Shown: piece by piece, positions 27,457 through 64,000 of the stretch
Numbering within the stretch: the stretch's first letter is position 1
Layout: each line of letters opens with the position of its first letter
From: an uncultured Aminicenantes bacterium
GTDB taxonomy: Bacteria > Acidobacteriota > Aminicenantia > UBA2199
DNA length: 64,000 bases
NCBI GenBank assembly: GCA_965195285.1
Contig: CBDAFS010000031.1
Coordinates: 83,912-147,911 of the forward strand
Direction: 5' to 3'
Notes under the pieces: generated by a model
Told to the model about the DNA's origin: nothing
The model's input: only the letters and a program-made list of their open reading frames with translations
Database searches by the model: none
Made by a program: the position numbers and the translations under genes

Positions 27457-27692
27457 ATTTTTTTAATAAAAAATGGGTGACATTCGGATCAATAAGGAAA
27501 AAGAACAGTCACTTCTGAGTTTGAATAGATGATGAGGTCAATCAGTGGATTTTGATACAATACTTGGTTTGATTTTAATCTTTGGCGGGATTTTTTTTAT
27601 TACTTATTTGTTTTTATGGAGTTGCAAAACCATTAATATTATTTCGAAAGACAACCTCCGTTCACTTCGAGAGATCCTGAATCGATTACGAA

Positions 27693-29960
27693 ATGGCCGA
27701 TAGAGATTCTATCCAATCAGAACTATCTCGTGAATTAAATCTATTCCATATTACCATGATGGGATTGGGTATGATGATCGGTGCCGGTGTATTTTTGGGT
27801 GTAGGAAATGCCATTTATGTGGCTGGCCCCGGAGGAGTGGTTTTAACTTTTTTATTAAATGGTGTCATTGCTCTATTTACAGCCGCATCTTATGCTGAAT
27901 TGAGTTCAGCAATACCCCATGCGGGTGGTGCATATAACTATGCCAGAGTTGGATTTGGCAAAGGTCCAAGTTTTGTTGCTGGTTGGATGGAGTGGTTCGC
28001 ATCCAGCGTAGCCGGAAGTTTATATGCGGTCACTTTTTCTATTTATACGGTTCGATACCTGAGTGTTCTGGGTCTGTTATCCTGGTTGCCTTTTCCCACA
28101 ATAATCACAGAAAAGATAATGGCTATACTGGTGGCTCTATTATTCATATACATTAATTATTGGGGTGCATCGAAAACCGGAAAAATCGGAGCTTTATTCA
28201 CATTAGGACAAACTATATTTTTGATATTGATAGGACTGATTGGTGTAATCGTTGCCATTAAAGATCCTTCTCGTTTGCAGAATTTTCAACCTTTTCTCCC
28301 CAAAGGGTGGGCAAAATTATTGGTTACCATGGGATTTACTTATGTTGCTTTCGAGGGTTTTGAGGTGATTGCTCAAGCAGGAGATGAAACCATTGAGCCA
28401 AGAAAAAATTTACCCAAAGCCATGTTATATTCCGTATTTATTGTTACCATAATCTATATGATAGTTGCATTCGCAACAGTTATAGCAGTAAAAGCCGGTG
28501 ACCCGGGAATCAATGTTGCTCCCTGGCAATGGATCGGTGGTTTCAAAGAAAGAGGTTTTGGAGAGGCCATTTCCCGATTATTGCCAATGGGAAATTTCCT
28601 GTTGACGCTGGCGGTTATTTTTGCTTCAACTTCAGCTCTGAATTCTACTATCTATTCAGCTACCAGGGCGTTGTATGCTCTGGGACGTGATCGCATGGTA
28701 TCTCCATTTTTTGCCAAAATTTCAAAAAAGCGAAAAACTCCCTGGGCGGCTTTACTGGGTACAGCAATTCTACTTATTATTGTAGCTACCGTGTTACCGA
28801 CTATGGATGTTGCCTCCAGTGCCAGCATGATGTTTTTGATTTTGTTTTTTTTGGTTAATATATGTGTGATCAGAGTCAGATGGCATATCGGAGATGAATT
28901 AACCTATGGTTTTGTTATGCCATTGTTTCCATTGTTTCCATTGCTTGCCATTATTTGCCAGGCTGTATTAATTTTCTGGATGATACACATGAGTATTATT
29001 GCTTGGATAATTGCTCCATTGTGGATTATTTCTGGTGTGTTGATATTCAGATTGTATTCAAAAAAGCATGCCATAGCCACAGCGGATGAAATTCAGGTAC
29101 TGGAAGAAGAGGAAGCCCCTGCTGGTGAGGAATACCGGATCATGGTTGCTGTTGCCCATCCCAAGAATGCCATTGAAATGATGAAGACAACTTATAAGCT
29201 GAGTACTGCAAAAAAGGCCAGGATCGAGCTCATCCATATGGTTCCCGTACCGGAACAGGTTCCCCTGACTGCAGCCAGAGATTATATGTGGGAGGGCAAG
29301 GAAGCTATTGTCGAGAGCATGATGTATCTGGAACCGTTATTCCAAATCAGTTCAACCATTCGTTATTGTCGAAATATTTCTCGTGGCATTGTGACGGCTG
29401 CCCGGGAAAAAAAAGTAAACATGTTGATAACAGGCTGGCATGGTCGTCGACGTACCCATGATTTCATATTCGGAAGCACCATTGATCCCATTATGGAGCG
29501 GTCGCCCTGCAATGTGGTAGTATTAAAGGGCGGGAAAATTGATTCTTATCAGAAAATTTTATTACCTCTGGCTGGAGGCCCGAACGGGCCATTTGCTCTG
29601 GAAGTGGCCAGTCTTCTGGTTGATACAGATGGAAAGATCACACTGCTCTATGTATATAACGCAGAAACTGAAAAAAGGAAGTTTGATGTTTATCTGTTTT
29701 TAAAAGAATATTCTCAGAAGTATCATCTGGCATCAGAGAGAATCGAAGTGAAAATAGTCAAAAATGATAATATTGAAAAAGCAGTATTAAAAGAAGCGGA
29801 AAATTACGATCTGCTCATTCTCGGAACCACCCGAAAACCTCTTCTGGCCCAGCTGGGAAAGGAGTCAATCCCGGAAATTATCTCCCGGAAATGCTCAAAA
29901 CCATTGATTATGGTGCATGCGGCAACCGGAATTCAATCCTGGATCAAACGATTAATATAA
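27693..29960 (+). CDS. APC-family amino-acid permease fused to C-terminal tandem universal-stress-protein (UspA) domains
   Basis: 12-TM core with the APC N-terminal signature ITMMGLGMMIGAGVFLGVGNA, then about 280 aa of cytoplasmic Usp-like folds (ILLPLAGGPNGPFAL..., LLILGTTRKP). Confidence 0.8.
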   Translation: MADRDSIQSELSRELNLFHITMMGLGMMIGAGVFLGVGNAIYVAGPGGVVLTFLLNGVIALFTAASYAELSSAIPHAGGAYNYARVGFGKGPSFVAGWMEWFASSVAGSLYAVTFSIYTVRYLSVLGLLSWLPFPTIITEKIMAILVALLFIYINYWGASKTGKIGALFTLGQTIFLILIGLIGVIVAIKDPSRLQNFQPFLPKGWAKLLVTMGFTYVAFEGFEVIAQAGDETIEPRKNLPKAMLYSVFIVTIIYMIVAFATVIAVKAGDPGINVAPWQWIGGFKERGFGEAISRLLPMGNFLLTLAVIFASTSALNSTIYSATRALYALGRDRMVSPFFAKISKKRKTPWAALLGTAILLIIVATVLPTMDVASSASMMFLILFFLVNICVIRVRWHIGDELTYGFVMPLFPLFPLLAIICQAVLIFWMIHMSIIAWIIAPLWIISGVLIFRLYSKKHAIATADEIQVLEEEEAPAGEEYRIMVAVAHPKNAIEMMKTTYKLSTAKKARIELIHMVPVPEQVPLTAARDYMWEGKEAIVESMMYLEPLFQISSTIRYCRNISRGIVTAAREKKVNMLITGWHGRRRTHDFIFGSTIDPIMERSPCNVVVLKGGKIDSYQKILLPLAGGPNGPFALEVASLLVDTDGKITLLYVYNAETEKRKFDVYLFLKEYSQKYHLASERIEVKIVKNDNIEKAVLKEAENYDLLILGTTRKPLLAQLGKESIPEIISRKCSKPLIMVHAATGIQSWIKRLI

Positions 29961-51224: not shown

Positions 51225-52352
51225 ATGAAAAAAACAGAAAAGTTTATCTGGCGGCACTTTTTTTGCAGGCCTCTGATTTTTTTAATGATTTCTGTCCTGG
51301 TTATTTCATGTTCTACTGAAAACAGCATGGAGATTGACATTACCCCCCTGCAATTGAATGATGGATGGAAAATATCCACACCGGAAGCACAGGGAATGAG
51401 TTCGAGTGAATTAATAGAGGCTTTTGATAAAGCATCAGACATGTCCTTCTTATACAGCATAATTATTGTCAGGAATGGGTTTTTAGTGGCAGAGAAGTAT
51501 TATAACGGTGCAGGTGTTGATCAGGCTAAATATGTGGCTTCTGTTACCAAAAGTTATCTTTCAGCTCTTATTGGCATTGCCCTGGATAAAGGCTTTATTC
51601 AAAGTCTGGATCAGAAAATGATGTCCTTTTTTCCCGAATATGATTCAATAGATATTGAATCGGCAAAATATGAAATCACTCTCAGACAATTGCTACAAAT
51701 GCAAGCAGGATACTGGCATGACAGTGAAACCAGCCGATGGCTGGCATGGGTGAATAGCCCGGATTGGATTGCATATATGATCAATCTGCTTTTGGAAAAT
51801 TCCCCGGGCACTCAATGGAATTACTCAACCGGTTCTTCTCATATTTTATCGGCAATATTAACAAAGACCTCCGGAATGAGTGGTGAAGATTTTGCCAGAC
51901 AATATCTTTTTGAACCGCTGGATACGGAACTTGTCCATTGGGGTGAAGATCCGCAGGGCTACAATTACGGTGGTTTTGATATGCATATTACCCCGCGAGA
52001 TATGGCGCGTTTTGGATTGCTTTATCTTGGCAAGGGACAATACCAGGGTCAGCAAATTGTGCCGGAAGACTGGATACGGAAATCAACTTCAGCCTATAGT
52101 GACGTATCCTGGTTTTTCGGGGTTATCCAAAATCCACAGTACGGTTATCACTGGTGGATCGGAAGTATGGAGGGTCATAACATTTTTTTCGCCCAGGGGC
52201 ATGGCGGTCAGAATATTATTGTGTTCCCGGGACTTGAGATGGTTGTGGTCACTACCACAAATCCTGATCTCGGCTTTGAAGACAGCTGGCTACAATCCAT
52301 TTCCACATTCCATTTCATTGCCAAGGATATTCTTGTTGCTGTGAAAGAATAG
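51225..52352 (+). CDS. serine hydrolase, beta-lactamase/transpeptidase-like family (lipoprotein)
   Basis: Lipobox VISCS; SxxK motif ASVTKSY; C-terminal HGGQ region. Confidence 0.8.
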   Translation: MKKTEKFIWRHFFCRPLIFLMISVLVISCSTENSMEIDITPLQLNDGWKISTPEAQGMSSSELIEAFDKASDMSFLYSIIIVRNGFLVAEKYYNGAGVDQAKYVASVTKSYLSALIGIALDKGFIQSLDQKMMSFFPEYDSIDIESAKYEITLRQLLQMQAGYWHDSETSRWLAWVNSPDWIAYMINLLLENSPGTQWNYSTGSSHILSAILTKTSGMSGEDFARQYLFEPLDTELVHWGEDPQGYNYGGFDMHITPRDMARFGLLYLGKGQYQGQQIVPEDWIRKSTSAYSDVSWFFGVIQNPQYGYHWWIGSMEGHNIFFAQGHGGQNIIVFPGLEMVVVTTTNPDLGFEDSWLQSISTFHFIAKDILVAVKE

Positions 52353-52415
52353 TTATTTTCATTTATTATACACTTTGTCCTTTCCCTCTTAATTTTGAAT
52401 TAATTGTTTTTTATT

Positions 52416-52444
52416 CGGGAAAAATATCCCGGCTGGGTTTTTTT
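52416..52444 (+). terminator. putative intrinsic terminator after serine hydrolase gene
   Basis: CGGGA-aaaata-TCCCG stem, then gctggg and a T7 tract. Confidence 0.3.
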
Positions 52445-52538
52445 ATCCTCCAGGAACTGGGAAAAGGTCAACATCTATTGGTAAGCAGGGAAAAATAACA
52501 TTATTTCAGATCGGGAAAATATTTTATATTTCTTTTTA

Positions 52539-52937
52539 TTATCGGGTGCAGACCCAAGTACCTGGGGTGCCTTCCTCATCCAGGGTTCCGTTCATGGTAT
52601 TGTCTGTGGTTATGGTTCCGGTGCAGATGTCGGTTACATCAGCACTGGGCCAGTAAACCGTCCAATTAACCGTTGAACCACTGACCGTATAAGTCCCAGG
52701 ACCTGTATAGGTACCGGTTGTCCAGTCCGGGCTTACCGTACAGGTTACCGCTCCGGAAGTATCGGATCCGGCAAAAGTAATCGTACCAGTATAGGTCCAG
52801 GTGCCCGAATAGGTCATGGTGATATTCCAGTTTCCGAGAATACTGAAGGTGTCTTCCTCTTCACTGGTTTTACATGACGTGTTGAATGTCAAAAAAGCAA
52901 AAAGTAGCATACAAATCCAAATTGATGTTTTTTTCAT
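52539..52937 (-). CDS. small Thr/Gly-rich lipoprotein
   Basis: GGAGG sits 5 nt upstream of the ATG at 52937; lipobox NTSCK; two Cys near the C-terminus. Confidence 0.55.
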   Translation of the reverse strand: MKKTSIWICMLLFAFLTFNTSCKTSEEEDTFSILGNWNITMTYSGTWTYTGTITFAGSDTSGAVTCTVSPDWTTGTYTGPGTYTVSGSTVNWTVYWPSADVTDICTGTITTDNTMNGTLDEEGTPGTWVCTR

Positions 52938-53078
52938 GATAACCTCCGCTCTGTTTTTACTATATGGGAAATTGAAAGTCAACCTCAATTCATTTAAATA
53001 TACCTATTTTGGTCAAGATTAGAATTTTATCCGATAAGGTTACTACCGGGGTGTTATAATTACTCTATTTTTCAAATT

Positions 53079-53417
53079 CTAAATATTCAGAATCGAACCT
53101 TCTTTGATGATGATCATTTTTCGTTTTATGGGGAAAAATAGAAAATAAAAAACTCGGTGATAATGAACTTCGACACGAAAAGTACCCGCTTCCTTGTTTT
53201 CAGTGATGATGATGTCATCGGATTTTACACGTAGTCTGTCATCCCGGTAGATCCCCATTATCTTCTCTTTGAAGGCCTTTTCGCCTATGGTGTTGTAATC
53301 ATTTAAAATGGTTCCTAAATTCAAATTTAAGCTGACTTTCTGGTTACTGTGATTAAACAATTGAATGGCTAAAAATACCAGGTAGATCACCACCAAAATC
53401 AGAATAATCTTTTTCAT
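53079..53417 (-). CDS. membrane-anchored hypothetical protein
   Basis: GAGAGGA SD-like upstream; N-terminal TM MKKIILILVVIYLVFLAIQLF. Confidence 0.45.
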   Translation of the reverse strand: MKKIILILVVIYLVFLAIQLFNHSNQKVSLNLNLGTILNDYNTIGEKAFKEKIMGIYRDDRLRVKSDDIIITENKEAGTFRVEVHYHRVFYFLFFPIKRKMIIIKEGSILNI

Positions 53418-53692
53418 GGTTAATCCTCTCTTTTCTCCTGGTTACACAATGCTTGTCTATATATTATATTAAATCATAATAAAAAAAAATCAACTGGTAT
53501 AACAAAATATGAAATGACCGACCGAACCACTATCCGGAATCCCCCGGATCCGTTTTGCCTATAGAGTATCGAAACAAAAGTCAATGGTTGCGGAATTCGG
53601 GAAACTTTTTGGCCGCTGAATCCGTTATTATAAATATGATAGGAGATTTGTATTTGTCTCCCCACTTATTCATTTTTAAAGGAGTGATATCA

Positions 53693-54649
53693 ATGCTTTT
53701 ACCCGAAAAAAGAATAATTGATTATCAAGTCAAATTTTTAAGCTGGTTTTTTCTGACATTCTTTCTGACTTCGAGCTGGATTTTTCCGGCCCGGGCTCTG
53801 ACCGTTCCGTCCCGAACCTGGGGGATCTGTTTCGGGAATTCTCCCCGCTTTACCGGATTGCGCTTCAATTTTATCGACCGCAATATCCAGACTATCAACG
53901 GCATCAATCTAACCTTGTGGAAGCCTTCGGATAAACTGGCCAGCGGAACCGTAAACGGTTTTTCTCTGGGATTGATACCATATGCCAATCATTTGAATGG
54001 GATTCAAATCGGGTTGCTAGGTGCGGGGGCCAAAGAAAACATCACCGGGATTACCATTGGTTTGATCGGTGCCGGTTGTGGTAGTGATATGAAAGGCATT
54101 AACATCGGTGGAATCGGGGTGGGGGCCGGTGGCAGTATGGTCGGTCTCAATCTGGGCCTGGTGGGAGTCGGTGCCGGAGAGAATGTCATCGGCATTAATA
54201 TCGGTGGCCTGGGTGTCGGAGCAGGTCAGAATTTGATTGGTTTGAATATCGGCCTGCTGGGTGTGGGAGCCGGTGAAAATGTGACCGGGATCACTATTGC
54301 CGGACTGGGAGCCGGTGCCGGAGAGAAATTGACCGGGCTGACCATCTGCGGGTTGGCGGCCGGTGCTCCAATGATTAAAGGAATTACCATTGCCGGATTT
54401 GGACTTGGCGGAAAGTCCATATCCGGACTCTCAATTGCATTGGGAACGGTGCAGGTAACGGATGACGGCATCATCAGCGGCTTGAGCATCAGTGCTTTCA
54501 ATTATATCCGGGGTACCCAGAGAGGAGTGGCCATCGGTATTGTCAATTACGCCTACCGGTTGAAGGGATTGCAGATCGGACTGGTGAACATTGTCCGGGA
54601 TAATCCCAAAGGAAGAGTGGTTCTTCCCATCATCAATTTTTGCTTTTGA
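53693..54649 (+). CDS. secreted glycine-rich protein built of ~13 tandem 16-residue repeats (consensus hNIGhhGVGAGENhhG)
   Basis: AAAGGAG SD before the ATG at 53693. Signal peptide ...SSWIFPARALT. The 16-aa periodicity is visible as a 48-bp DNA periodicity over about 53990-54600. Confidence 0.7.
   Translation: MLLPEKRIIDYQVKFLSWFFLTFFLTSSWIFPARALTVPSRTWGICFGNSPRFTGLRFNFIDRNIQTINGINLTLWKPSDKLASGTVNGFSLGLIPYANHLNGIQIGLLGAGAKENITGITIGLIGAGCGSDMKGINIGGIGVGAGGSMVGLNLGLVGVGAGENVIGINIGGLGVGAGQNLIGLNIGLLGVGAGENVTGITIAGLGAGAGEKLTGLTICGLAAGAPMIKGITIAGFGLGGKSISGLSIALGTVQVTDDGIISGLSISAFNYIRGTQRGVAIGIVNYAYRLKGLQIGLVNIVRDNPKGRVVLPIINFCF
53990..54600 (+). repeat. ~48-bp tandem coding repeat (13 imperfect copies) inside the Gly-rich protein gene
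   Basis: Recurrent ...aatatcggtggcctgggtgtcggagcaggtcagaatttgattggtttg... units. Confidence 0.7.
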
Positions 54650-54657
54650 CGGTTACT

Positions 54658-54813
54658 TCAGGTTTTATAAATTGTATTGACCCAGTTCCGGAACCAGGGA
54701 GGCTTTTCCAGGATCACATAGATCAGCAGGATGGCCATGAAGGGAATGGGAATAATCATATCAAATACGGCAAAAACGATCAGGAATATCAAAAGAGTTG
54801 TTTTTAATTTCAT
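54658..54813 (-). CDS. small two-TM membrane protein
   Basis: 51 aa (MKLKTTLLIFLIVFAVFDMIIPIPFMAILLIYVILEKPPWF...). ATGA-type overlap with the methyltransferase stop. Confidence 0.4.
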   Translation of the reverse strand: MKLKTTLLIFLIVFAVFDMIIPIPFMAILLIYVILEKPPWFRNWVNTIYKT

Positions 54814-55463
54814 CTTAATTTCCTTGTTTTTGATTCCGGTTGGCACAACCAGACGTTGCCGAAGCTCGAGGTGGGGAAAGATTTTTTGATTTTCAGGCCG
54901 GCAGCACCAAATTCCGCTTCCCGGGAAGTGGAAATAAATTCGGGATAATTTGGGCCCTCGATCCATTCGATCAGGCGTACAAACCAGCCTCCCTCACAGC
55001 AGTAGTCAAAAATCACCACATATTCGGCGGCAATACGGGATATGTTATTCAAAATGGTTTTTCTGAATTCCGGGGAAAGTCCGTGGAGGAAGTAACCGGA
55101 TGAAACAATCCCGAAACTAGTGGAGGGGATTTCAGGAAGGTCAACCAGGTCAAATTTTTTAAAATCGATCCGGGGAAATTTTTTTCTTGCCCTTTTCAGC
55201 AGTCGTTGCGAAAAGTCGAATCCGGTTACCGGGTGGCCCTGACGGGCAAAAGCTGCCGCCAGTATCCCGCTGCCCGTGGCCACATCCAGGACCGATAGTT
55301 CGGGGTGAAGCCCCAGTTTCCTGATGACTTCTTCATAGCGGGGAAACAGATGCCATTCGATCAGGGGATACAGAATGGCTGTCAAATTGAAAAAAATTTG
55401 GGCCCGCTTTCTTTCCGATAAAAAATCTTTGGTTTGACCCGGGTCCGGGTTGCCTTTTTTCAT
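54810..55463 (-). CDS. class I SAM-dependent methyltransferase
   Basis: Motif I VLDVATGSGILAAAFA; acidic residue after beta-2 (GFDFS). Confidence 0.8.
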   Translation of the reverse strand: MKKGNPDPGQTKDFLSERKRAQIFFNLTAILYPLIEWHLFPRYEEVIRKLGLHPELSVLDVATGSGILAAAFARQGHPVTGFDFSQRLLKRARKKFPRIDFKKFDLVDLPEIPSTSFGIVSSGYFLHGLSPEFRKTILNNISRIAAEYVVIFDYCCEGGWFVRLIEWIEGPNYPEFISTSREAEFGAAGLKIKKSFPTSSFGNVWLCQPESKTRKLR

Positions 55464-55733
55464 CCATCTATTTTGCCAAAAAACCGAAAAAAAGTAAAAG
55501 ATAAATAGTAAATCCGACTTCTCTAATTCATTTTGTACTTAATGACCACGGGATTGTAATGTATTTCCCGTTGTGATCAAATACATCCACCAGGACCCGC
55601 TTCTGTGTATTCATGGCCGAAGTAACGACCATTAACTTTCTCTTGGTAAGACGCCTTTCTTTTAAAAAAAGTTTACCAGAAAGCAACCGGAATTTGAATA
55701 TAAATGACCGGGATTTGATTTTTTCATCCCGAC

Positions 55734-55762
55734 TTGTCATTAATTTAGAAATGGAATATAAT
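55734..55762 (+). promoter_or_regulatory. sigma70 promoter TTGTCA-N17-TATAAT driving the K-rich sORF
   Basis: TTGTCA at 55734-55739, 17-nt spacer, TATAAT at 55757-55762. Confidence 0.6.
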
Positions 55763-55794
55763 CAATATGAGGACAGGGTAAAAGGAGGAACAAG

Positions 55795-55899
55795 ATGCCC
55801 AAAGGAAGGGAAAAACCCAAATCCAGTGATAAGAAACCCCCAAAACTATCTTTAAAGGAAAAACGGAAAAAAAAGAAAGAAAAAAAAGAAAACAGATAA
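55795..55899 (+). CDS. lysine-rich 34-aa small protein/leader peptide (MPKGREKPKSSDKKPPKLSLKEKRKKKKEKKENR)
   Basis: AAGGAGG sits 8 nt upstream of the ATG; a TTGTCA-N17-TATAAT promoter lies 33 nt upstream of the SD. Confidence 0.4.
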   Translation: MPKGREKPKSSDKKPPKLSLKEKRKKKKEKKENR

Positions 55900-56061
55900 T
55901 CTCCTGCTATCAGGGCAGGAACCAGTGGATGTAACGGCAGGTGTCGCACACGTAGTACCTGGCATTCCGGTTGGCCCAGTCCAGGGTTTTGCTGAATATT
56001 AAATCTTAAAGTCCGGTTTGTTTCGTTCCGGAGAATTCATTTTATTTCTGGAGGTAATCAA

Positions 56062-58629
56062 ATGAGATCAAAATTTGCTGTTTTACTGATACTGTTAATG
56101 ATCGTTCCCGTATTGGCAGTCGATACCGCCAAAGAAGCGGAAAAGGAAAAAACCATAGAGAACTGGCTGATGCTGGGTCCCGGTCCGGTGACGGGGCTGG
56201 AACAGGCGGTTTATAAATCGAACCGGGATATTGCCAATCACCGGTTTCTTGATATCTCCGCACTCTGGCCCCGGGCCGGCCAGGAGGTGGTCTGGAGCCA
56301 TGGCCGGGTACTCCAATGGAATCCGGTTAACCAGTATAGCATTACCCCGACAGGCGATTCGCTCTATTATTTTGTCAGCTTTGTGGATGCCCATAAATTC
56401 CTGAAGGCCAGACTGGTGGTCAACGGAATCCATAAGGCCATGGTCAACCTGTACCTGAACGGCCAGGAGGTAAAGAAGCAATGTGACCAGAAAACCGGGA
56501 AGGTAACGGCAGACCTGACCCTGCTGAACAAAAAACATGTACTCCTGCTCAAGGTGTTTATCCCTCAAGGAGAAAACTTTATCCTGGATGTCCGGGTGTC
56601 TGATGCCCGTCAGGTGGAATCCGGAGAGCTTGCTTTTTCAAATTCCCGGACCAGGCGGGTTGATTTCAACCAGATTTTGAAGGTGAAAGGCGTATACTCC
56701 CTGAAGGTCTCTCCTGACGGCCGGTATGTGGCGGTTTCGCTGGGGCAGACCGGACCGGATGGCAGCACCGGCCGCTGGATCGAGATCCTCAAAATCGCTG
56801 ATGGCTCTAAAATCCTGACTACCGAAGGTCGGGGAAGTTTTTCCAATCTGACCTGGCTGAAAAACTCCAGGGGCTTTCTCTACAGTGTCGAGAGCAAAAA
56901 GAAAACCACCATCTATCAATACAACCTGCAGTCCGGGGAAAGAACAGCGGTCATCTCCGGAATCAAGGACCTTTCCAATTTTCGCCTGTCTCCGGACAAC
57001 TCTTTTATCATGTACTGGACCTATAAGAAAAAAGACACGGGGAGTGGGTACAAGTATATCGAAACCATACCCGACCGGGCCGCTTCCGGGCGCTATGACT
57101 ACGAACTGTGCCTCCGCTACCTGAGGGGGGGAGCCGCTCACAAGATTCGTTCCTTCACCGAAAACCTCTATTCGGTGATGATCAGCCCGGACAGCAGCAA
57201 GGTGCTCTTCTCCACCCTGGTCCCGGATCCCCGGAAAAGGCCCTATTACAAAAGTGTTTTCCATATATTGGATCTGAAAGACCATAGCATTAAAAAGCTA
57301 TTTGAAAGCAACCTGGTTTTTCCGGCCGCCTGGGCACCGGACTCCTCCCGGCTTTTGTTCACCGGAGGCCCGTCCTCATTCGGGGGGATCAGTAATACCC
57401 TTAAGGAGGGTGTGATTCCCAACGAATACGACACCCAGGTGTTTATTTACGATATCGCCACCCGCAAGGCCAGCACCATCACCCGGGATTTCACTCCCTC
57501 GGTGGAGGATGTGTTATGGAGCCAGTGGGACGGGAATATTTATCTGCGGGTCACGGATCGGTCCTTTATCAAATTGTACCGCTACCAGACCAAACGGAAT
57601 ACCTTTAGCGAGATCCGGATGCCGGTAGAGGCGATCCGGCGTTTTGATGTTTCTTCCAGAGGAGGGTTTGCAGCCTTCTGGGGTTCCGGGGCTGCCAATC
57701 CCCACAAGCTTTACCGGGTGGACCTGTCCCGGCTGCGAGTGTCACTGCTGAAGGACTACAATGCCCGGTATTTTCGCCATATCCGGTTCGGAAAGGTGAA
57801 AGACTGGGATTACCGGACCCCGGAGGGGAAATACATCATTGGCCGTATCCATTATCCCCTGGATTTTGATGCCAGTAAAAAATATCCCTGCATTGTCTAT
57901 TATTACGGCGGTACCTCGCCGGTGGAGAAAAGTTTCGGCGGCCGTTATCCCTTCAACTGGTATGCGGCCAACGGCTATGTGGTGTACGTGCTGCAGCCCA
58001 GTGGTGCCGTGGGTTTCGGCCAGGCCTTTTCAGCGTTGCATGTCAATGATTGGGGCAAGGTCACTTCCCGGGAGATCATCGGGGCTACCAGAGAGCTGAT
58101 CAAGGCCCATCCCTATATCGATCCCCAACGGCTGGGGGCCATGGGTGCCTCTTATGGTGGTTTCCTGACCCAGTATCTGGCCACCCGGACCGATATCTTC
58201 GCGGCCTTCATCTCCCATGCCGGTATCAGTTCCCTATCCAGTTACTGGGGAATTGGCGATTTTGGCTATACCTACAGCGGGGTAGCCACAGCCGGAAGCT
58301 TCCCCTGGAACCGCCGGGATATCTATGTGGACCAGAGTCCGCTGTTCCTGGCTGACAAAATCACCACCCCCCTGCTGCTGCTTCACGGCGAAAAGGATAA
58401 CAATGTGCCCCCGGGTGAGAGTTACCAGATGTTTGCCGCCCTGAAGCTGCTGGGCAAGGAGGTCGCCCTGGTAACCGTCAGCGATCAGGCCCACTGGATC
58501 ATGAAATATGAAAAGCGGCTCCACTGGATGAAGACCATCATGGCCTGGTTTGACAAATGGCTCAAGGGGGAAACCCTTTACTGGGATGACCTGTACGGAA
58601 AATACCAGACCAAAAAAGAGAAAAAATAA
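56062..58629 (+). CDS. S9-family serine peptidase (prolyl oligopeptidase/acylaminoacyl-peptidase type) with N-terminal beta-propeller
   Basis: Signal peptide; GGAGGT SD; nucleophile elbow GASYGGFLT; C-terminal catalytic Asp/His region (LLLLHGEKDNNVPP...DQAHWI). Confidence 0.9.
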   Translation: MRSKFAVLLILLMIVPVLAVDTAKEAEKEKTIENWLMLGPGPVTGLEQAVYKSNRDIANHRFLDISALWPRAGQEVVWSHGRVLQWNPVNQYSITPTGDSLYYFVSFVDAHKFLKARLVVNGIHKAMVNLYLNGQEVKKQCDQKTGKVTADLTLLNKKHVLLLKVFIPQGENFILDVRVSDARQVESGELAFSNSRTRRVDFNQILKVKGVYSLKVSPDGRYVAVSLGQTGPDGSTGRWIEILKIADGSKILTTEGRGSFSNLTWLKNSRGFLYSVESKKKTTIYQYNLQSGERTAVISGIKDLSNFRLSPDNSFIMYWTYKKKDTGSGYKYIETIPDRAASGRYDYELCLRYLRGGAAHKIRSFTENLYSVMISPDSSKVLFSTLVPDPRKRPYYKSVFHILDLKDHSIKKLFESNLVFPAAWAPDSSRLLFTGGPSSFGGISNTLKEGVIPNEYDTQVFIYDIATRKASTITRDFTPSVEDVLWSQWDGNIYLRVTDRSFIKLYRYQTKRNTFSEIRMPVEAIRRFDVSSRGGFAAFWGSGAANPHKLYRVDLSRLRVSLLKDYNARYFRHIRFGKVKDWDYRTPEGKYIIGRIHYPLDFDASKKYPCIVYYYGGTSPVEKSFGGRYPFNWYAANGYVVYVLQPSGAVGFGQAFSALHVNDWGKVTSREIIGATRELIKAHPYIDPQRLGAMGASYGGFLTQYLATRTDIFAAFISHAGISSLSSYWGIGDFGYTYSGVATAGSFPWNRRDIYVDQSPLFLADKITTPLLLLHGEKDNNVPPGESYQMFAALKLLGKEVALVTVSDQAHWIMKYEKRLHWMKTIMAWFDKWLKGETLYWDDLYGKYQTKKEKK

Positions 58630-58797: not shown

Positions 58798-61700
58798 ATG
58801 AATGACTCAATAAAAATTTTTGTCATCATTTTGTTGATTTTATTTCTCAACTTATCTGCTCAACAACTACACATAAAAAATTATACAACCGATAATGGTC
58901 TCCCATCATCACAAGTATGGTGCAGTTTACAGGACAGTAAAGGTTATATCTGGTTTGGAACATCTAATGGCCTGGTAAAATATAACGGGAAGAGATTTTT
59001 CACATACAAGGTCTCGGACGGACTTGTCAGTAGTGTTGTGCTGGCATTATTGGAAGAAAATGGTAATATCTGGATTGCAACTGATAACGGGATAAGCTGT
59101 TATAATGGTAAAAGTTTTACCAATCATATATCAAATAATGATTTAAATTTTGGAATAGTTTGGTGTATCTCAAAATTTCAGGGTTGTTTGTGGTTCGGAA
59201 CAAAAAGACAGGGGTTGTTTAAATTTGACCCTGCCGGGGCTGAAGATAATGTTTTTTCAAATTATTCTGCAAAAGAAGGCTTATACCTTTCCAGTATTTT
59301 TTCCTTGGCTGCGGATGATAACCATTTGTGGATTGCCAATGCCCATACCGGATTATTCATGTATGATGGGAAAAATTTTTTAGATTATACAAAAAGTTTT
59401 AACCTGGAAAATAAAACATTAACAAACTTATTAATAGTTGACTCTACATTACTGGTAGGAACGGCAAAGAATGGCTTATTCGAATTGGATCTTAATAGAT
59501 TGCCTGATAGAATGGCTAAATCAAAAAAAGTTGCCAACTACTTTCCTACTGATTACATTTATTACTTGGCAGCAAAAAAGGAAAACCTGTTTTTGGGAAC
59601 TCGTGGTAGCGGTCTTATTCATTATAAAGACAGACCAATCAGGTATACAACGGCAAACGGTTTAATAAATAATTTCATTTATTCAATATTAATAGACAAG
59701 GAAAATTCCGTATGGATTACCACCAACAAAGGAATCAGCAAAATTATTTCTCATAAATTTATAAAATATGTAGATAATATGTCGGTATTATCTGCTTGTG
59801 AATTTAAGAGTGCAATCTGGCTGGGAACGTTTGAAAACGGTTTGATAAGAATAGAAGGTGATAAGATTACTACTTATAACCAAAATGGTTTCTTTAACCC
59901 CAGCCATATATGGGTGCTGGGTGTGTTCGATAACAAGCTGTGGATAGGGGGTATGAGTGGATTATATAGTTATGATGGTAATAAGTTTAAAAAATACAGA
60001 AGAAAAAATGGAATTGCTGAAGAAGGCGTATTAAGCCTCTTACCTACCGTGAAATCTTTGTGGGTTGGAACTGTAAATAAAGTATACAAATTCGAACCTC
60101 ATAAATTAAAAGATAAATTTTTAACTTATGGATCAGAAGACGGTCTAACCAACACCTATTTTCAGACTATCTGTCAGGATGGGAATAAAATATGGGTTGG
60201 TTCCCCTGGCGGTGCCTTCTGTCTTGACCTAAAAGAGGGGGGGGGATTTAAAAAGTTCTCAAAAAAAGATGGGCTGTCTTCTAATTGTATAAATGTGATT
60301 TTTAAGGACAACAAGGGAATATTATGGTTCGGAACTTCAAATGGGCTGAATAAATATGAACCAGACAAAGAAAAGAAATTTAGCGTTTACACTATTGAAA
60401 ATGGATTAAGTGACAATCATATAGTATCTATTATTCAAAAAGGTAAATATTTATGGCTCGGGACCAGTAATGGATTAAATAAATTTGATGGCGAAAATGT
60501 CATAAAAATATTTACCCAGAAGAGTGGCTTAATTGGTAATGAGTCATCATCACCAAACGCAATGTTTCTTGACAGCAATAATCATATCTGGATCGGTTCT
60601 CCAAAAGGGGTAACAAAATATATTCCTGAGAATGATATTCCCAATAAAGTGCCTCCACCGGTATATATTGAGAATTTTTTTATGAATAATTCACTGGTTG
60701 GTGATGAACAAGATCTTGAGTTTGAATATAAAAAAAACACAGTAAAATTTTCTTATATAGGTCTTTCCTTTCAAAATGAAGACGACGTGCGGTACAAATA
60801 CAAATTAGAAGGATACGATAAAGAGTGGTCGGAAGTAACTGAAAAAGATGAAGTTAGATATACCAATTTAAATAACGGGACTTACACTTTCATGGTATTT
60901 GCTCGAAACGGGGATGGTTTTTGGTCAAAAACTCCGGCAGAAATATCTTTTAAAATACTTCCCCCTTTCTGGAAATCCTGGTGGTTTGTAATTATTGTGG
61001 CACTCATGCTGGTTGGGATAGTATATGTTGTTTTTATATTGAAGACCACTCAAATGAGGAATAGGGCAAAAAAGTTAGAGCAAAAAATTGATGAAAGAAC
61101 AAAAGTGCTAAAGGACTCAGAAGAAAAATACAGAACATTAATTGAACATTCAAACGATATGATATGGACCCTGGACGAAAAGGGAAATTTCAGCTACTTT
61201 AACAAAAAGTCAGAAGAGATAACAGGCCACCAAATTGAAGAAGGGATCGGAGGGTCATTTGCTCCCATAATTCTTGAAGAAGATTTAGAAAAGGTTCAGA
61301 AGGTTTTTATTGGAGCAATGCAGGGAAAACCTCAACATTATGAAGTAAGAATTTATGACAGTAAAAAAAGAATATTATTTTTATCTGTAAATACCGCGCC
61401 CATTTTTAAAAACGGAAAGGTTATTGGAACTATTAGTTTTGGAAGAGACATAACGAAACAAAAGAAAATGGAGGAAGAACTTCTGAAAGCAAGCAAACTC
61501 GAATCACTCGGGATCCTTGCCGGGGGTATAGCTCACGATTTCAATAACACCCTTACTGCAGTTATTGGTAATTTATCACTGGCAAAATTACAAGTAGATT
61601 CAAAAGACAAACTCAATAATACGTTGATGAAAATCGAAAAATCCTCACAGCAGGCAAGGGATTTAACTCAGCAATTACTAACTTTTGCCAGAGGTGGTAC

Positions 61701-62613
61701 TCCGATTAAGAAAAAAATCTTTGTTAATGATTTGCTAAAAGATTCCGCTTCATTTGCCCTGCGAGGTTCCAATGTCAGATGTAAGTTTTTGATTTCTGAT
61801 GATACATGGCCTGTGGAAGTTGATGAAGGACAGATTAGTCAAGTTATAAATAACCTAACTATGAATGCTGACCAGGCCATGCCAGCAGGAGGAGTATTAA
61901 ATATATCTGCAGAGAATATAAGCATTGACATAGAAGAATCTCTTCCTATTAAAAAAGGAAACTATGTAAAAATAACCATCAAAGACATAGGCGCCGGTAT
62001 ACCGGATGACTGTATACAAAAAATATTTGATCCCTATTTCACAACAAAACAAGAGGGAAGCGGACTGGGGTTGACAATTACTTACTCAATTATTAAAAAG
62101 CATAACGGGTATATTACTGTAAAATCAAAACCGGGAGTTGGAACAACATTTTTTGTTTATCTTCCGGCTTCTGAAGAAAAAGAACCATCAAAAGAAAAAA
62201 AGAAAAAAATACCACTTCAAGTTGGAAAAGGGAAAGTCCTGGTAATGGATGATGAAGAGTCGGTTAGAGATATTGCCGGGGAAATGCTAAAACATATTGG
62301 CTATACGGTGGAGTTTGCAGAAGATGGAAAAGAAGCTTTAAAACTATTCATGAAGGCTAAAGACTCCGGAGCTCCATACGAGGTTATGATTTTAGATTTA
62401 ACGGTAGCCGGTGGGATGGGAGGCAAGGAAACGATTAAGGAACTAAAAAAGATTGATCCCAACGTAAAAGCAATAGTATCCAGCGGTTATTCGGATGATC
62501 CGGTTCTGTCAAATTTCAGAAAGTATGGTTTTTCAGAAGTAGTCTCAAAGCCATACACTATTCAAGAACTCAGCGCTGTATTGAATAAAGTTTATCAAAA
62601 AAAATCCATATGA
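58798..62613 (+). CDS. hybrid sensor histidine kinase with periplasmic double beta-propeller (Reg_prop + Y_Y_Y), PAS, HisKA, HATPase_c, REC (paralog of 33902-38038)
   Basis: Signal peptide; repeated IW.GT.NGL..YNG blades; TM WWFVIIVALMLVGIVYVVFIL; H-box [16 protein letters not shown]; G-boxes DIGAGIP and GSGLGL; REC Asp in MILDLTVAG. Confidence 0.85.
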   Translation: MNDSIKIFVIILLILFLNLSAQQLHIKNYTTDNGLPSSQVWCSLQDSKGYIWFGTSNGLVKYNGKRFFTYKVSDGLVSSVVLALLEENGNIWIATDNGISCYNGKSFTNHISNNDLNFGIVWCISKFQGCLWFGTKRQGLFKFDPAGAEDNVFSNYSAKEGLYLSSIFSLAADDNHLWIANAHTGLFMYDGKNFLDYTKSFNLENKTLTNLLIVDSTLLVGTAKNGLFELDLNRLPDRMAKSKKVANYFPTDYIYYLAAKKENLFLGTRGSGLIHYKDRPIRYTTANGLINNFIYSILIDKENSVWITTNKGISKIISHKFIKYVDNMSVLSACEFKSAIWLGTFENGLIRIEGDKITTYNQNGFFNPSHIWVLGVFDNKLWIGGMSGLYSYDGNKFKKYRRKNGIAEEGVLSLLPTVKSLWVGTVNKVYKFEPHKLKDKFLTYGSEDGLTNTYFQTICQDGNKIWVGSPGGAFCLDLKEGGGFKKFSKKDGLSSNCINVIFKDNKGILWFGTSNGLNKYEPDKEKKFSVYTIENGLSDNHIVSIIQKGKYLWLGTSNGLNKFDGENVIKIFTQKSGLIGNESSSPNAMFLDSNNHIWIGSPKGVTKYIPENDIPNKVPPPVYIENFFMNNSLVGDEQDLEFEYKKNTVKFSYIGLSFQNEDDVRYKYKLEGYDKEWSEVTEKDEVRYTNLNNGTYTFMVFARNGDGFWSKTPAEISFKILPPFWKSWWFVIIVALMLVGIVYVVFILKTTQMRNRAKKLEQKIDERTKVLKDSEEKYRTLIEHSNDMIWTLDEKGNFSYFNKKSEEITGHQIEEGIGGSFAPIILEEDLEKVQKVFIGAMQGKPQHYEVRIYDSKKRILFLSVNTAPIFKNGKVIGTISFGRDITKQKKMEEELLKASKLESLGILAGGIAHDFNNTLTAVIGNLSLAKLQVDSKDKLNNTLMKIEKSSQQARDLTQQLLTFARGGTPIKKKIFVNDLLKDSASFALRGSNVRCKFLISDDTWPVEVDEGQISQVINNLTMNADQAMPAGGVLNISAENISIDIEESLPIKKGNYVKITIKDIGAGIPDDCIQKIFDPYFTTKQEGSGLGLTITYSIIKKHNGYITVKSKPGVGTTFFVYLPASEEKEPSKEKKKKIPLQVGKGKVLVMDDEESVRDIAGEMLKHIGYTVEFAEDGKEALKLFMKAKDSGAPYEVMILDLTVAGGMGGKETIKELKKIDPNVKAIVSSGYSDDPVLSNFRKYGFSEVVSKPYTIQELSAVLNKVYQKKSI
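60237..60245 (+). repeat. G9 homopolymer inside hybrid HK coding sequence (potential slipped-strand site)
   Basis: aaaagaGGGGGGGGGattt encoding KEGGGF. It sits in a gene of about 33% GC where such a tract is unexpected. Confidence 0.6.
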
Positions 62614-64000
62614 AAAAACATAACTATTTTTTAATTCCTTTTCTTATTTTAAGTATTAATCTGTTCTCTCAGACCAATATCGATAGTCTGGAAAAAAGAT
62701 TATCCCGATTTACCGGGACGAATGAGGAAAAAGTTAATATTTTAAATAAATTGGCAAAAGAGTATCTGAGTACATCACCTGAAAAATCAATAGAATACGG
62801 ACAACAAGCCTTGACATTATCAAAACAATTAAATTTCCTTAAAGGACAAGCAAAATCTTTAGAAAACATTGGAATAGGGCATTCTTATCTGGGCAATTAC
62901 AATAAGGCTTTGGAATATCTTACCAAATCATTAACAATAAGTGAAAAAGCAGGATATATAAAAGGGGTTGCCGACACGGCAAAAAATATTGGAATTAATT
63001 ATCGAAAATTAAGCAATTATGATATGTCGTTAGAGTATTATTTAAAATCGTTAAAAAAATATGAACAAATTAAAGATAAAAATGGGGTTACCGATGTTTT
63101 AAACAACATAGGAATTGTATATGGAAAATTAAGTAATTTTGATAAGGCGTTAGAATATTTTCTTAAATCATTAAAAATGTATGAAGAAATGGGTAATAAA
63201 AAAGGTATTTCTTTTTCTTCAATTAATATTGGGAATGTCTATTATTTCTCAAAGAAGTATAACAAGGCATTGGATTATTTTCTAAAGTCCTTGAAGATTT
63301 TAAAAGAGCTCGGGAACAAATTCGGTATTGCCAGTTCTATGAGTAATATCGGAGAAATTTATCAACAATTAGGTGATTACGATAGGGCTTTGGAATATTA
63401 TTTGAAATCATTAAAAATAGTAAAGGAAATCGGAGATAAGAACATCATTGTCATTAACTTAATCGGTATTGGAAATCTTTACTTAGAAAAGAAAAAGTAT
63501 GACAAATCATTACAATATCTTGAGCAAGGGTTGACATTAGCAAATGAAATTGGAGCAAAAGATTTAATTCAGGAAATCTATAAGGTCTTTTCTGATTTGT
63601 ATTCGAGAAAATCCAATTACAAAAAGGCTTTAAAATATTATTTGCTTTATTCGGAAGTAAAAGACAGTATTTTTACCAAAGAAAGCAACAATAAAATTGC
63701 AGAAATGCAGACTAAATATGAGACGGAAAAGAAAGAAAAAGAAATCGAAATATTGCGCAAAGACAAAGAAATTCAAAATTTCGAGATAATTCGCCAGAAA
63801 AATGTTCGCAACTCATTTATTGCTATTTCGGGATTAATTTTGGTTTTAGTTTTAGTGATTTACAGTCGTTATCATACCAAAAAGAAAGCAAATAAAATGC
63901 TTTCAGAAAAAAATATTCAAATTACCAAGCAAAAAAATCAGCTATCTCAAACTTTAGCCGAATTACAAGAGACTCAGAAAATATTAGTTGATACTGCACA
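62610..64000 (+). CDS. TPR-repeat membrane sensor protein (3' end outside window)
   Basis: ATG overlaps the HK stop. Signal peptide; at least 8 TPR-like repeats (AL.YYLKSLKI... motifs); TM FIAISGLILVLVLVIY; coiled coil. Open to the window end, so it is absent from the ORF track. Confidence 0.7.
   Translation, partial: MKKHNYFLIPFLILSINLFSQTNIDSLEKRLSRFTGTNEEKVNILNKLAKEYLSTSPEKSIEYGQQALTLSKQLNFLKGQAKSLENIGIGHSYLGNYNKALEYLTKSLTISEKAGYIKGVADTAKNIGINYRKLSNYDMSLEYYLKSLKKYEQIKDKNGVTDVLNNIGIVYGKLSNFDKALEYFLKSLKMYEEMGNKKGISFSSINIGNVYYFSKKYNKALDYFLKSLKILKELGNKFGIASSMSNIGEIYQQLGDYDRALEYYLKSLKIVKEIGDKNIIVINLIGIGNLYLEKKKYDKSLQYLEQGLTLANEIGAKDLIQEIYKVFSDLYSRKSNYKKALKYYLLYSEVKDSIFTKESNNKIAEMQTKYETEKKEKEIEILRKDKEIQNFEIIRQKNVRNSFIAISGLILVLVLVIYSRYHTKKKANKMLSEKNIQITKQKNQLSQTLAELQETQKILVDTA

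Follow-up and report, generated by a model that had tools for sequence, protein, structure and literature searches.

What a protein built almost wholly of short glycine-rich tandem repeats might be, to which family it belongs and what it may do for its host are the questions raised by one gene of an uncultured Aminicenantes bacterium. The gene lies on the plus strand, at positions 53693-54649 of a 64,000-nucleotide stretch (assembly GCA_965195285.1, contig CBDAFS010000031.1, forward-strand positions 83,912 to 147,911) that is called the window below, and it codes for 318 amino acids. An earlier note on this DNA, made without database searches, described a secreted protein of about 13 units with a strict 48-bp period, the central ones nearly identical, and suggested a beta-solenoid or fibre-forming surface protein of a family that could not be placed. 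We propose that the product, here called the repeat protein, is exported and forms a capped beta-solenoid rod of variable length in the cell envelope or at its surface, a reading that we consider reasonably probable.

The reading frame represents a real gene. The list of open reading frames (ORFs) lets it begin at TTG 53555 (53555..54649). ATG 53693 is the likely start instead, because a Shine-Dalgarno-like AAAGGAG, read from the sequence at 53678..53684 of the plus strand, precedes it with an 8-nt spacer; the stop codon is TGA at 54647..54649. A public protein of 318 amino acids (P0001, present in both NCBI and Logan sources) is 100% identical to the product and is called from the same ATG, and it occurs also on an independent Logan contig together with the same neighbouring genes. 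The repeat gene stands alone, its upstream neighbour being divergent and its downstream neighbour convergent.

Residues 1-35 (53693..53797, plus strand), MLLPEKRIIDYQVKFLSWFFLTFFLTSSWIFPARA followed by LTVP, have the make-up of a signal peptide. Judged by inspection, the n, h and c regions and the AxA motif of Sec-exported proteins are all present: a basic n-region with K6, R7 and K14, a hydrophobic core of 17 residues, and A-R-A at positions -3 to -1, with the signal ending in PARA before LT and without lipobox. The structure predicted by AlphaFold2 (AF2) has a lone helix in this region (aa 6-30). Relatives of the protein have canonical signal ends of the AxA or AQS type, and a lipobox-like motif is found in just 6 of 268 of them. 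Export through a Sec-type signal peptide is, on this sequence evidence, very likely, and a location beyond the inner membrane, in the envelope or at the surface, would agree with it. The mature protein of about 283 residues contains 22% glycine and 10% charged residues; its grand average of hydropathy (GRAVY) is +0.60 and its isoelectric point 9.6.

Self-comparison of the protein gives identities of 0.244, 0.22 and 0.19 at lags of 16, 32 and 48 residues and of about 0.1 elsewhere, and the strongest lags of the DNA are 144, 96 and 48. Within the core (aa 70-309), identity at lag 16 reaches 0.304, compared with 0.112 +/- 0.02 in 5000 shuffled sequences, whose maximum is 0.19 (z = 9.7). The 16-residue periodicity is real and far above chance. 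Together with the signal peptide and the glycine content, it bears out the description of a secreted, glycine-rich tandem-repeat protein.

The mature part consists of repeat units placed end to end, approximately 17 in succession, whose spacings run 11, 15, 19, 14, then seven times 16, then 15, 15, 18, 15, 14. Three regions, all on the plus strand, can be told apart. The N-terminal conserved units (aa 36-101, 53798..53995) have the spacings 11, 15, 19 and 14, which recur among 268 members, and are marked by invariant columns in an alignment of 68 sequences (A1). They are followed by eight exact 16-residue units, the only ones in the protein (aa 102-229, 53996..54379); register, family profile and AF2 model set them apart, and they form the expandable module, with the consensus xG[IL]NIGGLG[AV]GAG[E/x][N/D]h. 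The C-terminal units (aa 230-318, 54380..54646), spaced by 15, 15, 18, 15 and 14, are of the LA_2272 type discussed below (GVAIGIVNYAYRLK, GLQIGLVNIVRDNP), as seen from NCBIfam matches and invariant residues, and the protein ends with ...VLPIINFCF-COOH. End units take the form Gh[Q/x]hGhhNxAxxxx, of which GFSLGLIPYANHLN is a further example, and the central 16-mer is a glycine-rich variant of this type, with GxGAG in place of NxAxxx.

The count of about 13 strictly periodic repeats thus stands as far as the period is concerned and falls as far as the number is concerned, since only eight units are exact and those at their flanks measure 11-19 residues. The higher count is explained by the sums 15+19+14 and 15+15+18, both equal to 48, which keep an apparent register over about 14 unit lengths. 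Nor are the central units nearly identical: unit-to-unit identity is 25-81% in the protein and 44-73% in the DNA. Tandem Repeats Finder scored just 3.5 copies in the repeat DNA, and no long exact DNA repeats were found in the gene. Because the units have diverged in this way, a collapse of the assembly or another artefact of copy number is unlikely.

The repeat protein has many relatives. A word-indexed search gave 755 among the scored candidates, every one annotated as hypothetical, and an exhaustive profile search covering 1.84 billion representatives gave 347, 1575 and 5399 clusters at 50% identity for E<=1e-30, E<=1e-10 and E<=1e-3, respectively. The relatives confirmed among species-representative genomes number 233 and lie mostly in Candidatus Aminicenantes, and the closest match there, at 88% identity, belongs to an Aminicenantes metagenome-assembled genome. 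Other hosts are Calditrichota, Cyclobacteriaceae/Flammeovirgaceae (Bacteroidota), Poribacteria, Latescibacterota, Desulfobacterales and Acidobacteriota. All host lineages are diderm, and the hosts are mostly anaerobes of sediment and wastewater. Pfam returned no family for the repeat protein at E<=10, no precomputed Pfam domain for any of 120 listed relatives and no fused domain in ten longer relatives. On the strength of the empty Pfam result, bactofilin, leucine-rich repeats, PE/PPE, the curli repeat, the YadA head, hexapeptide repeats and RTX were excluded; for bactofilin, leucine-rich repeats, hexapeptide and PE/PPE the earlier note had reached the same view.

Members of the family share a common plan, with spacings of 11, 15, 18-19 and 14-15, then n times 16, then 15, 15, 18, 15 and 14. 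The number n of central units varies from zero, in a protein of 166 residues that has end units only (P0234), to about 13. Among 268 proteins, spacings of 16, 15 and 14 residues occur 1884, 1115 and 450 times, and the region equivalent to aa 102-245 measures 112, 128, 144 and so on up to 224 residues across A1, nearly always a multiple of 16. Relatives at 88-96% identity have 6, 8 or 9 central units and differ by deletions or duplications of whole units.

In a profile of 817 family 16-mers, which reads x G [I/L] N/T/S I G G L G [A/V] G A G [E/G/Q/K] [N/D] [L/M/V], the glycines at positions 2, 9, 11 and 13 are present in 100% of units and alanine at position 12 in 82%. Position 4 is asparagine, threonine or serine in 63, 17 and 13%. 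Variable, polar or charged residues are limited to positions 1, 14 and 15, and position 14 is the glutamate of 31%, the glycine of 21%, the glutamine or the lysine of 11% each and the aspartate of 8% of units. Nearly all invariant residues of the family are held by the end units, the most conserved part of the protein: in A1 they are G44, G48, N49, G55, R57, N59, D62, G70, N72, T74 and W76 on the N-terminal side and G263, G274, G278, G282, N285, G292, Q294, G296, N299, L311, P312 and N315 on the C-terminal side.

These end units are what connects the protein with named families. The NCBIfam model NF047436, "LA_2272 family surface repeat-containing protein", matches aa 290-304 and scores 26.1 bits (E 5.6e-06) where 25 are required, a marginal pass; it also matches 62 of the 68 sequences of A1 at E<=0.01, and six of six distant members pass its cutoff (26-40 bits). 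The model NF047437, "VC2662 family protein", matches aa 200-301 with 41 bits (E 1.3e-10) against a cutoff of 140, which does not make the protein a member; it reaches E<=0.01 in 67 of 68 relatives, 5.8e-13 being the lowest E-value, and the six distant members all fail with 22-42 bits. NF047435, the model of the LA_2272/LA_2273 family lipoprotein, did not match the repeat protein. By the NCBI rule, this is an LA_2272-repeat-containing protein, neither a VC2662 equivalog nor an LA_2272/LA_2273 lipoprotein.

Both the LA_2272 group and the repeat protein consist of exported repeat proteins of diderm bacteria, and the C-terminal units cited above match the 30-position model of that group. The model fits end units only, however, and the amplified glycine-rich 16-mer lies outside it; the N-terminal domain and lipobox of the LA_2272/LA_2273 lipoproteins are likewise missing here. 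The VC2662 model has 187 positions, and the relatives of similar size are the smallest ones, composed of caps only (166-199 aa). Two bioinformatic screens of Leptospira list LA_2272 itself among predicted outer-membrane proteins (PMC5348505, PMC2387172), and one of the two threaded it onto the pertactin beta-helix 1dab. The uncharacterised VC2662 was found enriched in a Vibrio cholerae ompU mutant, and deleting it gave no colony phenotype (PMC10865864). For LA_2272, VC2662, LIC11664/LIC11665 and the family names, the literature yielded only bioinformatic listings and a single proteomics mention, and no paper on the families.

The family can accordingly be placed, contrary to what was first thought: the repeat protein passes NF047436, is a distant relative of NF047437 and, by its sequence relationships, represents a distant branch of the LA_2272-repeat group. 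The earlier note had named a match to a well-characterised family as the outcome that would speak against it; the family found is named but uncharacterised, so this outcome did not arise.

The fold was predicted with AF2, for the whole protein from the 68-sequence alignment and also for a nine-unit fragment (aa 102-245). The whole-protein model has a pLDDT of 89 and a pTM of 0.74, the mean pLDDT of the five models is 86-89, and the mature part is all-beta. Each 16-mer forms a strand of 7-8 residues, two residues, a strand of 4 residues and again two residues, whereas the C-terminal units form near-continuous strands of 13-18 residues. The fragment repeats the strand pattern of the whole-protein model, at a pLDDT of 95.8 and a pTM of 0.86. 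Constant coil length, in-register units free of indels and a position-specific hydrophobic pattern, the traits that define the beta-solenoid class, are all found in the sequence. Foldseek gave no significant match to PDB (best E 0.63 for the full and 0.085 for the core model, TM <= 0.41) or to the viral models of BFVD, and PDB searches with the single sequence and with the 68-sequence profile returned noise only. Such weak hits as Foldseek did return, namely LpxA, LpxD, GlmU, gamma-carbonic anhydrase, CfAFP, the HMW1 secretion domain and Tapirin, are nearly without exception parallel beta-helices. As the earlier note had suggested, a beta-solenoid is the best structural reading of these models, and we regard a solenoid architecture as likely; its coil would have no solved counterpart.

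AF2 is known to over-predict confident beta-solenoids for repeat sequences (PMC11795689). The confident model could therefore be an artefact, with the glycine-rich middle flexible, disordered or otherwise folded, for example as an elastic linker between two small folded ends; the glycine content of 22% and the want of a matching solved structure would agree with this. The repeats in question are, however, natural and imperfect (25-81% identical), the five models agree, and the unit length of 16 is kept almost without indels over hundreds of units. Hydrophobic, small and glycine residues are strictly position-specific, with charge confined to positions 1, 14 and 15, and a disordered linker would not conserve such features. 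A real solenoid is favoured because of this fixed length and pattern, the gain and loss of whole units and the distinct, conserved end units, and we judge an artefact to be rather improbable.

Within a solenoid, two packings fit the sequence: I3 and I5 may face A12 and [AV]10, with glycine outside, or may lie directly on the glycine backbone. The complete conservation of four glycines and the low charge suggest that flat faces of the coil pack against another copy, a membrane or a polymer. This bears on the second possibility of the earlier note, a self-polymerising fibre subunit of functional-amyloid or silk type, in which glycine faces or solenoid ends would drive assembly into extracellular fibres. 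If G2, G9, G11 and G13 were exposed to solvent without packing, their presence in 100% of 817 units would be hard to explain, and high hydrophobicity, low charge and a Sec signal are all in keeping with a fibre subunit. The curli motif Q-x-G-x-G-N-x-A also resembles Q-x-G-x-x-N-x-A of the LA_2272-type unit, a similarity that serves as a lead and not as a test. On the other side, Curlin_rpt is absent even at E<=10, as is any other Pfam family, and nothing comparable to the conserved secretion or nucleator partner genes of the csg and fap operons lies nearby. The terminal units are moreover distinct and the most conserved of all, as in natural solenoids that are capped and do not polymerise. Because the invariant glycines and the low charge hint at face packing, self-association stays alive as an explanation, though an unlikely one.

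The C terminus raises a different alternative, in which the protein would be inserted into the outer membrane, or depend on BAM, with its hydrophobic repeats lying in or on that membrane, and its end ...N-x-x-F-COOH would act as a beta-signal. The motif [LMFV]PxxN is present in 251 of 268 relatives; 71% of those that carry it end exactly in N-x-x-[F/L]-COOH, and the [F/L] position holds F in 79%. Diderm-only hosts, the GRAVY of +0.60 and the listing of LA_2272 by the two Leptospira screens point in the same direction. Yet the repeat strands of the model, with 4 and 7-8 residues, are too short to span a membrane, and no beta-barrel is among the Foldseek matches. In 24% of members, 1-9 further residues, often charged, follow the F, and the hydrophobic residues do not alternate as they do in a classical beta-signal such as LPLFNTSF. 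A membrane-spanning closed barrel with an aromatic beta-signal is not what the data describe, despite the terminal F, and we hold this explanation to be very unlikely.

Several known systems resemble the proposed solenoid in one respect or another. Left-handed beta-helices built of hexapeptides (LpxA, LpxD, GlmU, gamma-carbonic anhydrase) are the top Foldseek matches of both models, none of them significant (E >= 0.085, TM <= 0.27), which suggests a similar local parallel-beta geometry. Hexapeptide proteins, with the repeat pattern [LIV]-G-x4, are cytoplasmic enzymes with 18 residues per triangular coil, in contrast to the 16 per coil found here, and the Pfam Hexapep model does not match. Like the coils proposed here, the beta-rolls of the YadA head and of RTX proteins, both exported bacterial surface proteins, have a short period and contain glycine. 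The YadA head repeat has 14 residues (NSVAIGxxSxAxxx), and the RTX repeat is GGxGxDxUx. Of the 7 specified positions of the YadA consensus, GVAIGIVNYAYRLK matches 5, a lead only; the Pfam models YadA_head and HemolysinCabind do not match the protein, and neither fold is among the Foldseek matches. The trimeric autotransporter anchor of YadA is absent as well, and RTX proteins carry a C-terminal type I secretion (T1SS) signal in contrast to the Sec signal seen here. Calcium sites of RTX type are unlikely in the repeat protein, because the acidic position of the 16-mer is not conserved (31% E, 8% D).

Of the same period are the bacterial ice-nucleation proteins (INPs), whose central domain of 16-residue coils has been modelled by AlphaFold as a flat beta-solenoid of two sheets (PMC9418140). 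In InaZ and PbINP, as in the repeat protein, tandem coils of this length vary in number and are followed by a C-terminal end that is specialised (PMC9418140). One could thus imagine that the coil forms a surface organising ice, minerals or crystals, in the manner of ice-nucleation or antifreeze solenoids, with the regular ladder of Asn, Thr or Ser at position 4 active on a flat glycine face. INPs, however, have 50-80 coils, organise water through TxT and SLT motifs, possess a Tyr ladder and are anchored to the membrane by an N-terminal domain, where the repeat protein has 8 glycine-rich coils and a cleavable signal peptide. The two are unrelated in sequence. The INP consensus AGYGSTQTAGEESSLT, compared with the 16-mer at any cyclic shift, agrees in at most 5 of 16 residues, mostly glycines; TxT is absent and so is a match to Pfam Ice_nucleation. 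With hosts that mostly live as anaerobes in sediment and wastewater, we consider such an activity highly improbable.

For the capped solenoid rod that we favour, the following scheme may be drawn. The approximately 17 units would stack as coils of a parallel beta-solenoid about 80 Å long, at a rise of 4.8 Å per coil, and rods of the family would range from about 36 Å to more than 110 Å. In each 16-mer, hydrophobic residues at positions 3, 5, 8 and 16 and small ones at 10 and 12 would fill a thin core between two sheets, with the invariant glycines 2, 9, 11 and 13 lining tight turns or flat faces. The glycine-rich 16-mer would have been amplified in tandem, and gain or loss of whole units by in-register recombination would change the length of the rod. 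The middle would then be a spacer of freely variable length, and the conserved end units would serve as caps, interaction ends or both, carrying any specific contacts. Exposed, stalk-like proteins typically vary fast by whole units between strains that are otherwise near-identical. In the diderm envelope or at the cell surface, the protein would play a passive part, structural or adhesive, as a stalk or spacer and not as an enzyme; for a structural or stalk role specifically our confidence is rather low. A periplasmic strut of fixed distance was also considered and rejected, since family members have anywhere from about 8 to about 24 coils, and near-identical relatives 6 to 9 central units.

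For genomic context, the window was compared with 80 related loci from genomes and one from a metagenome, 82 loci in all. No conserved neighbour gene was found in them beyond synteny within clades, the best neighbour cluster occurring in 13 of 82, and the neighbours seen in the window are common only to the loci L001 and L002. A stand-alone structural protein fits this pattern, as it fits the absence of fused Pfam domains. PADLOC defence models gave nothing for the repeat protein or its two small upstream neighbours, Rfam gave nothing at E<=1 over 52300-56100, and tblastn found no match among plasmids.

Some points weigh against the capped rod. Its fold is a prediction, in which geometry, handedness and inward-facing residues were deduced from DSSP strings and from fold matches that are all weak, the best E of 0.085 and TM <= 0.41 being without significance. 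The hydrophobicity of the mature part is unusual in a soluble rod and its charge is low, genomic context offers no functional hint, and no functional experiment on any member of the family was found.

The repeats also give rise to proline- and alanine-rich ORFs on the minus strand, at 54004-54195 and 54226-54501, with an in-frame stop between them. The earlier note had called these ORFs (54004-54501) spurious, and so they appear: comparable ones lie under related genes in 65 of 82 loci, only beneath the glycine-rich part. Their third codon positions coincide with those of the sense frame, and it is the sense frame that holds the signal peptide and the conserved termini. We take them as by-products and not as genes, because GGN (glycine) of the sense strand reads CCN (proline) in that antisense frame.

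Several small genes surround the repeat gene. Divergent from it, an ORF of 112 amino acids at 53079-53417 (minus strand) has an N-terminal membrane anchor and no Pfam or PADLOC match; it is kept only in the two closest loci, L001 and L002, and is thus no family-wide partner. Further upstream, the product of 52539-52988 (minus strand) is small and predicted to be exported or a lipoprotein (MKKTSIWICMLLFAFLTFNTSCK...); its probable start is an internal ATG near 52940, Thr, Gly and Trp are highly enriched in its mature part (TYSGTWTYTGTITF..., GTYTGPGTYTVSGSTVNWTVYW), and it again has no Pfam or PADLOC match. Downstream, a SAM-methyltransferase gene (54810-55463, minus strand) shares its last 4 nt with a hydrophobic ORF of 51 amino acids (54658-54813, minus strand) that was called on the identical public contig (L001, 6966-7121); both genes are convergent with the repeat gene. 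The overlap suggests translational coupling of the tiny membrane protein to the methyltransferase. Beyond them lie an S9 peptidase of 855 amino acids (56062-58629) and, downstream of it, a hybrid sensor kinase of 1271 amino acids (58798-62613, plus strand) with Reg_prop/Y_Y_Y propeller repeats, PAS, HisKA, HATPase and receiver domains, both ordinary. A different arrangement is seen in one Aminicenantes clade (L022, L026, L033, L035, L049, L062, L064, L077 and others), in which the repeat gene is placed between a gene for about 760 amino acids upstream and a convergent gene for about 608 amino acids that begins 10-70 nt downstream; this synteny is confined to that clade, and the window lacks it. 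As for base composition, G+C falls to 0.31-0.35 at 26001-28000 and 60001-64000, compared with about 0.40-0.47 over most of the window, and strong positive GC and AT skew accompanies it from 60 kb on. These stretches may be foreign or otherwise atypical DNA.

The repeat protein stands for a family for which Pfam has no model, although its sequence clusters number in the hundreds to thousands and come from several diderm phyla that are poorly known. As a speculation that goes beyond the rod itself, we suggest that the glycine-rich coil is of an unsolved type, whose bare-backbone glycine faces would pack exported rods face to face or onto an envelope polymer, so that the family would be a widespread but unrecognised scaffold of the envelope or surface, rapidly tuned in length, in diderm phyla that are uncultured (Aminicenantes, Calditrichota, Poribacteria and others). 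If the predicted solenoid holds, the family would present a compact, naturally length-variable solenoid with an unusually glycine-rich coil, a new coil type of use in classifying and designing repeat proteins. It would also open a way to study an envelope or surface component of these uncultured lineages, and the LA_2272 group of Leptospira and the VC2662 group of Vibrio, both uncharacterised.

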